From NCBI GenBank assembly GCA_029881495.1, contig JAOUMJ010000004.1, positions 28,476 to 92,475 of the forward strand: a DNA stretch of 64,000 bases, given 5' to 3'. The notes under the pieces were generated by a model. The model ran no database searches. It had not been told where the DNA came from and worked only from the letters and a program-made list of their open reading frames with translations. Made by a program: the position numbers and the translations under genes. The first letter of the stretch is position 1, and the number at the start of each line of letters is the position of its first letter. Shown here piece after piece: positions 32,880 through 36,211 of this stretch. This stretch comes from Nitrospinota bacterium. Lineage in GTDB: Bacteria; Nitrospinota_A; UBA7883; JACRGQ01.

Positions 32880-33464
32880 TCAGCTTGAAAGCGTTTTGAG
32901 CGACTGCCTGATTATCTCCGATATGGAGAGTTCCTTTTCAGGCGCCGATACCGCCATTACCGCTTTTTCCGCCTGCGCCCTTTTGTAGCCGAGGTTCACG
33001 AGCGCTTCTACAGAATCCCGTATATCGGCGCTTCCCGACAGCGCGGTTCCGGCGCCGGTCGGCGGTGCCATTTTATCCTTCAGCTCGATTATGATCCTTT
33101 CGGCGGTCTTCTTGCCGAGGCCGTGAACGCGGGAGAGTTTCGCCACGTCGTTATTCGCGATTGCCGATTCGAGGTTGCTTGAGCTGATGCCGGAGAGTGT
33201 CTGTATAGCGAGCTTCGGACCGACGCGCGAGACGGTTATCAGTTTGTTGAAAACATCCTTCTCATCGGTATCGAAAAATCCGTAGAGGTGCAAAGCGTCT
33301 TCCCTGGCTATCGTGACAACATGAAGCCTTGCGTTCTCCCCCCTTTGCGGAAGTTTTTCATAGGTGTTGAGCGATATGAAAAGCCGGTACCCGACCCCAC
33401 CTACATCGAGGATGACCTGCGTCGGTTTTTTCTCCGCCACAATTCCGGTAAGCAGGGCGATCAT
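32880..33464 (-). CDS. ruvA: Holliday junction DNA helicase subunit RuvA
   Basis: MIALLTGIVAEKKPTQVILDVGGVGY N-terminus matches RuvA; start overlaps ruvC stop (ATGA). ORF track start is 33509. Confidence 0.85.
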   Translation of the reverse strand: MIALLTGIVAEKKPTQVILDVGGVGYRLFISLNTYEKLPQRGENARLHVVTIAREDALHLYGFFDTDEKDVFNKLITVSRVGPKLAIQTLSGISSSNLESAIANNDVAKLSRVHGLGKKTAERIIIELKDKMAPPTGAGTALSGSADIRDSVEALVNLGYKRAQAEKAVMAVSAPEKELSISEIIRQSLKTLSS

Positions 33465-33955
33465 TTGAGCGCAAGCCTCTTCAACGCGGGCGCCGAATGT
33501 ATATGGCATATCGCGACGCCGAGCGCATCGGCGGCATCGGCAGGCTTTGGAGCCTCTTTGAGCGAAAGGAGACGGCGCACCATCCCGGCGACCTGATGCT
33601 TCTCCGCCTTCCCGTGTCCCGTAAGCGCCTTTTTCACCTGAAGCGCGCTGTATTCATATACGGCGATGCCGCGGTTTACGGCGGGGAGCATCGCGGCTGA
33701 GCGCGCCTGACCAAGAAGCAGTGCCGATCTCGGATTCTCGGCGGTGAATATGTTTTCTATCGCCGCTTCGTCCGGAGAATATTTTTCGATTATTTCGCTG
33801 AAGCTCCTGTATATTTCACCCAGCTTTTCTGGGAGATTTTTGGACGGGTCTGTCTTTACCGCGCCGAAAGCGACGAGGGAAAGCCTGTTCCCTTTTTCCT
33901 CAACGAGCCCCCACCCCGCTATTCTGCTTCCCGGATCTATGCCAAGGGTAAGGAT
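33461..33955 (-). CDS. ruvC: crossover junction endodeoxyribonuclease RuvC; no canonical start codon in frame (see findings)
   Basis: Continuous frame encodes (I)LTLGIDPGSRIAGWG...GQARSAAMLPAVNRGIAVYEY...; ORF track only reports the C-terminal 76 aa from an internal ATG at 33691. The 5' boundary 33955 is an ATC codon. Confidence 0.7.
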   Translation of the reverse strand: MLTLGIDPGSRIAGWGLVEEKGNRLSLVAFGAVKTDPSKNLPEKLGEIYRSFSEIIEKYSPDEAAIENIFTAENPRSALLLGQARSAAMLPAVNRGIAVYEYSALQVKKALTGHGKAEKHQVAGMVRRLLSLKEAPKPADAADALGVAICHIHSAPALKRLALK

Positions 33956-33960
33956 GTCCG

Positions 33961-34710
33961 TTACTCCGAAAGCTTCTTCATGATTTCGTCGGAGATGTCG
34001 AAATTTGCGTAGACCTTTTGAACGTCGTCGTGGTCCTCGATGCTATCCATCAGTTTGAGCATTGCCGCCGCTTTGCTCTCGTCGAGGCTTACGGTATTTT
34101 GAGGGATCATTGTCAGCTCGCATTCTGTCGGTTCCAAGCCTTTTTTCTGAATGGCTTCCCTTACCGCTTCGAAATTCGAGGGTTCGGTCCTTATCTCGTA
34201 AACATCATCTTCGGTCTTGATGTCCTCCGCCCCTGCTTCGAGAGCCAACTCTATCAGCTCATCTTCAGATATCTGGTCGACCGGAATTTCGATGTACCCC
34301 TTGTTGTCGAATAGATAGCTCACACTGCCGGTAGTCCCCATGCTCCCTCCGCTTTTGCCGAGAAGGAGCCGTATTTCCGGGAGTGTTCTGTTCTTGTTGT
34401 CTGTCGCGCACTGAATGAGGATGGCCACTCCCCCCGGCCCGTATCCTTCATAAGCGACCTCTTCTATCATCTGTCCGGGGAGTTCTCCCGTCCCTTTCTT
34501 GATGGCTCTGGTAATGTTATCGGCCGGCATGTTCACCGATTTCGCGGCGTACACGGCTGTTCTTAGCCTCGGGTTGGCATCTATATCTCCTCCTCCCGAC
34601 TTTGCGGCAAGAGTTATCTCCTTGATATATTTTCCAAAAATCTTCCCCTTTTTCTGGTCGGCGGCCCCCTTTTTCCGTTTTATCGTCGACCATTTTGAAT
34701 GACCTGACAT
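33961..34710 (-). CDS. yebC: YebC/PmpR family DNA-binding regulator
   Basis: [26 protein letters not shown]-terminus is the YebC signature; 249 aa. Confidence 0.9.
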
Positions 34711-34837
34711 CGTAATGCTCCCAAAAAGTAAGGTTGTATCTGTAATTTGCTGTTGAGAATGTTATCACAGCTGAAATGCGCCGCATAGCGGACAACTTTT
34801 TCCTCTGAGTTGATCTGATTTCTGCGGGGAGGCAGGC

Positions 34838-35098
34838 TCATCCTTTCCGGATTTTTTCGATATCCTCCTCCCCCTTCGCCTCTATCTTGCGGATGTCTGC
34901 TGAGTATCTTTCGGTGATGTCGTCACGTTCCGCCGGATTGGAGGTTTTTGACAACGCCTCCCGAAACATTATCTCCTCCTGGGCGAGCCTCGCGGCGGTT
35001 TTGGAGCGCACTTCGGCTATCCCCTTTCTTTGTTCGTCGGTCAGTTTGCGGTTCTCTCCACCGGATCTTTCCATGGCGAGTTCTATGGCGCTTTTCAT
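34838..35098 (-). CDS. hypothetical small charged coiled-coil protein
   Basis: ORF on minus strand divergent from ruvB; highly charged (K/E/R-rich), no family recognised. Confidence 0.3.
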
Positions 35099-35194
35099 TA
35101 CTCCCTCCGATTCAGAAACATTCTTTTCCAGATGATACATTATTTCGCGCCGCTTATCTGGTCAAGTACGCGCGCGCAAGGTTATAATCCGGTC

Positions 35195-36211
35195 ATGTCC
35201 GAATTGATCGAACCGCAGGGAGAATCGCCGGCAGATGTCGTCATTGATGAAAGCCTCAGGCCGAAATCGATCGACGATTACGTCGGGCAACAGAGGATAA
35301 AGGAAAACCTCAAGATATCGATAGCCGCCACGCGCAAACGTGGCGAAGCGCTCGACCACATCCTTTTTTACGGACCTCCCGGCCTCGGAAAGACCACTCT
35401 CGCCTACATAATGGCAAACGAGCTTGAAGTGAACATAAGGGCCACCTCCGGCCCTGCCATAGAAAAAGCGGGAGACCTCGCCGCAATACTTACCAATATC
35501 GAAGAGAACGAGATAGTCTTTATCGACGAGATACACAGGCTTGCCCCGCCGGTGGAGGAGATACTCTATCCCGCCATGGAGGACGGGAATATAGATCTCG
35601 TTATCGGGCAGGGCCCGTCGGCAAGGTCGGTAAAGCTGGAAATCCCGCCATTCACGCTGGTAGGAGCCACAACGCGAGCCGGGCTTTTAACCTCCCCTTT
35701 AAGGGACAGGTTCGGCATTGTTCACCGTCTCGAATTCTATACCGAGGGGGAGCTTGCGCAGATAGTCAAGCGTTCAGCCGGAATCTTAGGCGCTCCTCTC
35801 GACGATGAAGGGGCAAGGGAGATCGCGCGCCGCTCGCGGGGAACCCCCCGCATCGCCAACCGGCTCCTTAGGCGCGTCCGTGATTACGCGGAGGTAAAGG
35901 GTGACGGCAGGGTAACCATGGAGATAGCGGGTCTCGCGCTCCGCATGATAGATATCGACGAAATGGGATTCGACAGAATGGATAGAATGCTTCTCCTTGC
36001 GATAATAGAAAAGTTCGGTGGAGGTCCGGTAGGGCTGGATACGCTTGCCGCCGCCATCAACGAGGAGAAGGATACGATAGAGGATGTCCTGGAGCCGTAT
36101 CTCATCCAGGAGGGATTTCTCCAGAGGACACCTCGCGGAAGGGTCGCCTGTGAAGCGGCATATCGTCACCTGAAAAAAAATCCCCCTTCACGACAAAAAG
36201 AGATCTTTTAG
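35195..36211 (+). CDS. ruvB: Holliday junction DNA helicase RuvB
   Basis: Walker [12 protein letters not shown], Walker [11 protein letters not shown], sensor and C-terminal winged helix; ATG at 35195 (MSELIEPQ). Confidence 0.92.

Follow-up and report, generated by a model that had tools for sequence, protein, structure and literature searches.

A ruvC Frame without a Canonical Start Codon

A 64,000-nucleotide stretch of DNA from a Nitrospinota bacterium (GenBank assembly GCA_029881495.1, contig JAOUMJ010000004.1, positions 28,476 to 92,475), hereafter the window, carries on its minus strand a gene for the resolvase RuvC, and the significant point is that this ruvC is left without a canonical start codon ahead of its catalytic residues. 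On the evidence of the sequence, the gene is very probably intact and functional, and would be translated from a near-cognate AUC codon (33955-33953) as the second cistron of a yebC-ruvC-ruvA unit. Initiation at this codon is what we infer from homology, from the conservation of the ATC, of a GGAG motif and of their spacing, and from the purifying selection acting on the N-terminal part of the protein.

The minus strand of the window was read over 33400-34900, the frame was translated, and the codons from 34048 down to 33899 were listed singly. Direct translation gave a ruvC frame that is open from a TAG at 34045-34043, seen also in the codon listing, to the TGA at 33463-33461. An earlier note on this DNA had described a RuvC frame running continuously to the stop at 33461 and bounded by the in-frame stop at 34043-34045, and these coordinates all hold. 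It had also stated that no canonical start precedes the conserved RuvC N-terminus, and the codon listing agrees: no ATG, GTG or TTG was found among the 30 codons from the TAG to this N-terminus, and CTG and ATH (H being A, C or T) are likewise absent from those 30 codons ahead of the ATC. The sole ATG, GTG, TTG, CTG or ATH codon from the in-frame stop to the G of the GIDPG motif is the ATC at 33955-33953, which is followed by CTT ACC CTT GGC ATA GAT CCG GGA (L-T-L-G-I-D-P-G) and is separated by a gap of 5 nucleotides (nt), CGGAC (33960-33956), from the TAA (33963-33961) of yebC. The proposed coding sequence (33461-33955, minus strand) would comprise 164 codons from this ATC to the TGA stop, as supported by the frame and its stops, by the Pfam and TIGR matches and by the substitution ratios given below.

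The next in-frame canonical start is the ATG at 33691-33689, codon 89 of the proposed gene, which opens an open reading frame (ORF) of 76 amino acids (aa) in the ORF table. In view of the constraint on the codons upstream of it, this ORF is most probably spurious and its ATG not the true start; as the earlier note had remarked, the ORF track shows only this C-terminal fragment of ruvC. The chance of 30 codons without a canonical start, roughly estimated as (58/61)^30, is about 0.2, and the gap in starts is not improbable when taken alone. No other evident gene of the window lacks a canonical start, as judged by eye, rather than by homology for each gene, from a table of stop-to-stop ORFs of at least 120 codons.

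Identity of the Protein

The product read from the ATC (164 aa) matches the Pfam RuvC family (PF02075) over positions 2-148 of the 148 of the profile (E 6e-53; 179.2 bits, cut-off 22.2), the TIGR00228 ruvC equivalog with 174.6 bits (cut-off 100.65), NF000711 with 169.1 bits (cut-off 163), and the structure of Escherichia coli RuvC, 1HJR, with an E of 2.6e-39. Its residue 3 pairs with chain residue 3 of the Thermus thermophilus RuvC 4EP4. No aligned RuvC relative departs from D7, E67, D140 or D143, and these residues pair with those of E. coli 1HJR, whose catalytic acidic tetrad is D7, E66, D138 and D141. By every criterion examined, the predicted protein is an ordinary RuvC, and the putative start codon of its gene is the unusual part.

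The ATC Is Shared by a Diverged Relative

In the protein search, the closest relative of the window RuvC was P0001, with 81% identity over 90% of the query, which is stored as a protein of 147 aa. Its N-terminus, MEGKGNRL, corresponds to VEEKGNRL of the window RuvC (residue 18), the gene caller having taken the next GTG. The expectation of the earlier note that gene callers would miscall ruvC as truncated is therefore realised in this relative, with its 147-aa product from an internal GTG. The contig that encodes P0001 (ENA ERZ27296367, here L008) reads across the junction of the two genes aag aag ctt tcg gag TAG cggat ATC ctt acc ctt gga att gac ccg gga, repeating the ATC of the window, the 5-nt gap after the yebC stop and the GGAG. 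In L008, where the ATC is at 2950-2952, an in-frame TGA stands 11 codons before it with no canonical start between, and the full-length RuvC, when read from the ATC, has 82% aa identity to that of the window.

A second member of the protein cluster, P0121, is encoded on the JGI contig L089 (sample 3300022204), whose junction, with the in-frame stop 11 codons ahead of the ATC, is identical to that of L008 and whose ATC is at 508-510. The two contigs show 7 mismatches over 1036 nt (99.3% identity), and to judge from this similarity they are one population sampled and assembled twice. Across yebC-ruvC, L008 and L089 have 75.8% nucleotide identity to the window, that is, 24% of the nucleotides differ. 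The ATC is thus present in three assemblies from two species-level lineages.

Purifying Selection ahead of the Internal ATG

The ruvC genes of the window and L008 align without gaps, the frame being intact across all 164 codons. Over the whole gene, the ratio of nonsynonymous to synonymous substitution rates (dN/dS) was 0.082, with a dS of 1.23. The values were 0.077 (dS 1.50) for codons 1-88, which lie upstream of the internal ATG and include the catalytic D7 and E67, and 0.084 (dS 1.01) for codons 89-164. At the protein level, the constraint on the part of ruvC ahead of the internal ATG matches that on the remainder.

The Initiation Region

The 40 nt of the yebC-ruvC junction (33942-33981, minus strand; ATGAAGAAGCTTTCGGAGTAACGGACATCCTTACCCTTGG) are the most conserved 40-nt segment of the 1250-nt yebC-ruvC block. 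Between 33981 and 33942, the window and L008 share 38 of 40 nt, whereas the mean of the 1211 segments is 30.2 (standard deviation 2.8) and no other segment reaches 38. Although dS exceeds 1, L008 has no synonymous change in the five codons that end yebC or in the four that begin ruvC. This suggests that the initiation region of ruvC may be under constraint at the nucleotide level.

A GGAG resembling a Shine-Dalgarno (SD) motif is found inside the last codons of yebC (33964-33967, minus strand), 8 nt before the ATC, and is kept in L008 and L089. At yebC itself, the spacer between a GGAG and the start is 7 nt long, and among other window genes spacers of 4-10 nt are repeatedly seen. The survey behind these observations was a crude scan, noisy and sometimes picking internal starts, and was used only for the occurrence of GGAG and of 4-10 nt spacers. 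The predicted RNA fold of the junction was no more stable than those of shuffled sequences, with z of +1.23 for the window and +0.67 for L008, and no stable fold was predicted; a junction so modelled as unstructured fits an accessible ribosome-binding site. In the relatives L001 and L009, which have an ATG start, the SD is weaker or missing where the ATC lineage has a clean GGAG. It has been reported that sub-optimal start codons tend to carry stronger or more conserved SD motifs (PMC5622118). The stronger motif in the ATC lineage, seen in very few sequences, would fit a compensation for a weak start.

More Distant Relatives and the Survey of ruvC Starts

The ATC aligns column-for-column with Met1 of nine aligned relatives and with residue 1 of T. 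thermophilus 4EP4. The relatives at 59-66% identity start with M-L/V-V-L-G-I-D-P-G, the column of the ATC being that of their Met1, and at the DNA level the homologous codon is ATG in both L009 and L001. The latter, a Nitrospirae metagenome-assembled genome (MAG), was the nearest species representative in the RuvC genome scan, and is only 59% identical to the window RuvC. Because the relatives at 59-66% identity have ATG at this place, the ATC is a derived codon, which differs from ATG by one transversion and has since been kept. Switches from an ancestral AUG to a near-cognate start have been reported as very rare (3/61,358) (PMC5622118). The choice of the earlier note for the likeliest initiator, the ATC at 33953-33955, 5 nt past the yebC stop, gains from the column match with the Met1 of the relatives and from the presence of the same codon in L008 and L089.

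Among named relatives, the protein is closest to those of Nitrospirae and Nitrospinota MAGs, with identities of about 59-61%. A scan of metagenome contigs with the RuvC alignment, which gave 80 loci, the best of them 63% identical, revealed no further member of the ATC clade.

A canonical start lies 4-13 codons ahead of the G of GIDPG in 72 of the 76 ruvC loci surveyed, the usual distance in these loci being 4-8 codons, and the ATC of the window stands at -4. Several of the other genes surveyed overlap the yebC stop or start a few nt from it. Besides the window and L008, two loci, L083 and L038, have no canonical start where one is expected. In L083 (774-866; Ga0256834_1001635), whose ruvC is 48% identical to that of the window, no ATG, GTG or TTG occurs from the in-frame stop to GIDPG; the candidates are an ATC at -12 codons, with a GGAG 5 nt ahead of it, overlapping the end of yebC, and an ATA at -2 codons, with a GGAG 8 nt before it. 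In L038 (1423-1515; Ga0209614_1001590), where the upstream gene is not yebC, a TTG that precedes GIDPG by one codon is the sole canonical ruvC start, and a CTG at -4, with GGGGGA 6 nt upstream, looks a better start than this TTG. Three apparently independent lineages, that of the window and L008, L083 and L038, hint that weak starts may be better tolerated in ruvC than in most genes. In the literature, no paper on a non-canonical ruvC start was found.

Alternative Explanations

Some observations weigh against translation from the AUC as we propose it. Only about half of the window genes showed an SD-like motif in the crude scan, and the role of the GGAG as an SD is a presumed one: the anti-SD of the organism's 16S rRNA lies outside the window, in whose 64 kb Rfam gave no family at gathering score (no rRNA or riboswitch, tRNAs not being scanned) and thus neither a 16S anti-SD nor a taxonomic marker. 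The conservation of the junction comes from one pairwise comparison, window versus L008. Moreover, the conservation of the third-position C weighs little statistically, the ATC clade being known from only two species-level lineages; at 44-58% of sites the synonymous codons agree in any case.

There is practically no chance that the ATC is a sequencing or assembly error, standing for a true ATG or accompanying an indel that hides a canonical start. A single transversion would turn it into ATG, the codon that L001 and L009 have; however, the identical ATC, gap and frame recur in a relative whose nucleotides diverge by 24% and which was assembled independently (ENA, JGI), and the 164-codon frame is intact, with no indel with respect to L008. 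Since the same ATC is found in independent assemblies of a diverged relative, together with the gap and the GGAG, we could exclude the sequencing error that the earlier note had kept as an alternative. Its other alternative was a truncated gene starting at the internal Met at 33691. That ruvC is truncated or decaying, with the 76-aa polypeptide as its only product or as a pseudogene, is exceedingly improbable, even if this fragment is all that an ORF finder limited to ATG, GTG and TTG gives. The 88 codons before the ATG at 33691 evolve with a dN/dS of 0.077 at a dS of about 1.5, the full-length Pfam and TIGR matches exceed their cut-offs, and a 76-aa product would lose half of the RNase H-like fold. 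The upstream part is constrained and holds the invariant D7 and E67, and therefore an internal-Met start or a pseudogene is untenable.

A programmed -1 frameshift near the end of yebC would produce a YebC-RuvC fusion and make a ruvC start unnecessary. The ruvC frame is the -1/+2 frame with respect to yebC (8 nt from the T of the TAA to the A of the ATC) and is open for 30 codons upstream of the ATC, and the nucleotides of the final yebC codons show unusual conservation; nonetheless, we consider such a shift highly improbable. By inspection, AUC AUG AAG AAG CUU UCG GAG UAA contains no X XXY YYZ heptamer, and neither do the 10 final yebC codons in the window or in L008, to which any shift is confined by the in-frame TGA of L008 lying 11 codons before the ATC. 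No stimulatory structure is predicted downstream, relatives carry separate ruvC genes started by ATG, and an SD with an initiation region explains the conserved nucleotides equally well. Two further candidates, a +1 prfB-like shift and stop-codon readthrough, were rejected, as both lead into the wrong frame. As for another non-canonical initiator, the ATA at 33940-33938 (Ile6) is near-cognate too and directly precedes the catalytic D7, and an ACG is present at 33961-33959. Use of either codon is very unlikely: their spacings from the GGAG, 23 nt and 2 nt, respectively, fall outside the 4-10 nt spacers of the window, and the usual start of the 76 loci, 4-8 codons before the G of GIDPG, agrees with the ATC at -4. 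In addition, codons 2-5 (L-T-L-G) fit the consensus L-[VIT]-L-G and belong to the conserved first strand, which a start at these codons would shorten or extend.

Proposed Mechanism

In the mechanism that we propose, initiator fMet-tRNA would read the AUC at 33955-33953 as the start of ruvC. Ribosomes could reach it by two routes, namely, de novo binding directed by the GGAG in the 3' end of yebC, and re-initiation by the ribosomes that terminate on yebC, whose stop is 5 nt upstream. Coupling of termination and re-initiation has been reported to need an overlap or a very short gap, and to be nearly gone at about 20 nt (PMC10666635). The 5 nt between the yebC stop and the ruvC start are in the range of such short distances, and coupling to yebC translation probably contributes to RuvC initiation. 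A natural precedent is E. coli infC, with the junction UAA-GGU-AUU: its output, 4-fold lower than with AUG and double that of an AUU construct with one cistron, has been described as re-initiation and de novo initiation added together (PMC3592434).

Translation table 11 includes near-cognate AUH starts. Measured with reporters in E. coli, initiation at AUA, AUC, AUU and CUG reaches about 1-2% of the level of AUG, and an N-terminal Met at AUC was confirmed by mass spectrometry (bioRxiv 10.1101/063800). The only confirmed non-canonical starts of E. coli are those of infC and pcnB, both AUU, and non-canonical codons make up about 0.05% of the annotated starts of bacteria, as derived from the percentages of ATG, GTG and TTG (bioRxiv 10.1101/063800).

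A start as poor as AUC would likely keep the output of the RuvC resolvase low and throttled. A nuclease that cuts junctions is presumably needed in few copies or toxic, and the low yield of RuvC might be adaptive rather than merely tolerated. It is possible, if doubtful, that the AUC is a selected throttle, in which case RuvC would be made mainly by re-initiation after yebC, at a low RuvC:YebC ratio and with sensitivity to the fidelity of initiation factor 3 (IF3), and the ruvC family could be unusually prone to near-cognate starts.

The Neighbourhood of ruvC

The upstream gene yebC (33961-34710, minus strand) belongs to the TACO1/YebC family, as indicated by the ORF table and by matches to Pfam PF20772 and PF01709. 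Downstream, ruvA (32880-33464, minus strand) starts with the ATG at 33464-33462, which overlaps the ruvC TGA (33463-33461) as ATGA, an overlap that is also found in L089; its product matches Pfam RuvA_N from residue 1, HHH_5 and RuvA_C. The ORF tool starts ruvA at an ATG inside ruvC (33509; ORF 32880-33509, minus strand), whereas the RuvA_N match and the L089 junction place its start at 33464-33462. A scan for promoters and terminators found no site resembling either on the minus strand from yebC to ruvC, and for this reason yebC, ruvC and ruvA look like one transcription unit.

A RuvB-like ORF is found on the plus strand (35030-36211), with the same layout in L008, where the Pfam RuvB domains are present. 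This ruvB is divergent from the unit on the opposite strand, which consists of a small ORF (34838-35140, minus strand, 100 aa), yebC, ruvC and ruvA. The same arrangement of small ORF-yebC-ruvC-ruvA and ruvB occurs in L008, with a small ORF of 86 aa for which there is no Pfam match on record in that contig. The TTG listed as ruvB start (35030) seems too early, as homology begins near MSELIEPQ, at about 35197.

Implications for Annotation

Gene finders that accept only ATG, GTG and TTG truncate an essential recombination gene, ruvC, to an ORF of 76 aa here and to a public protein of 147 aa in the relative, and inventories of MAGs would score RuvC as partial or missing. A possible rescue guided by homology would be to accept ATH or CTG when the codon is aligned with Met1 and an SD is present. 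Well-supported non-canonical starts in bacteria are very few, and the predicted AUC would join them as a conserved natural example. It also suggests translation initiation as the step at which a low level of the Holliday-junction resolvase is set. The AUC start of ruvC belongs to the known near-cognate class of infC and pcnB, and the mechanism itself is not new; its value is mainly for annotation, with a modest point on the translational throttling of the resolvase.

Comparison with Known Systems

In dnaX-type -1 frameshifting a slippery heptamer and a downstream stimulatory structure are present, and neither was found at the yebC-ruvC junction, by inspection and by fold prediction, respectively. 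The window gene is like the canonical ruvC genes of E. coli (1HJR), Pseudomonas aeruginosa (6LW3) and T. thermophilus (4EP4) in family, length and catalytic residues, and its yebC-ruvC neighbourhood is common to many bacteria; by contrast, the canonical genes have a canonical start 4-13 codons ahead of the G of GIDPG.

The title of a 2002 work by Binns and Masters, as given in PMC3592434, describes the expression of E. coli pcnB as translationally limited by an inefficient start codon, a description also found in Hecht et al. (bioRxiv 10.1101/063800). Like ruvC, pcnB, which encodes poly(A) polymerase I and starts with AUU, specifies a housekeeping enzyme, and by analogy the rationale of a low output could plausibly extend to the nuclease RuvC, although the gene and the codon are different. 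We know of no coupling of pcnB to an upstream gene.

E. coli infC differs in its codon, which is AUU instead of AUC, and in its gap, of 3 nt after the thrS stop instead of 5 nt; moreover, its AUU underlies the autoregulation of IF3, to which nothing links RuvC. On the other hand, the two genes have in common a near-cognate AUH start, predicted in the case of ruvC, a few nt past the stop of the upstream gene, and an SD, here the putative GGAG, in the 3' end of that gene.

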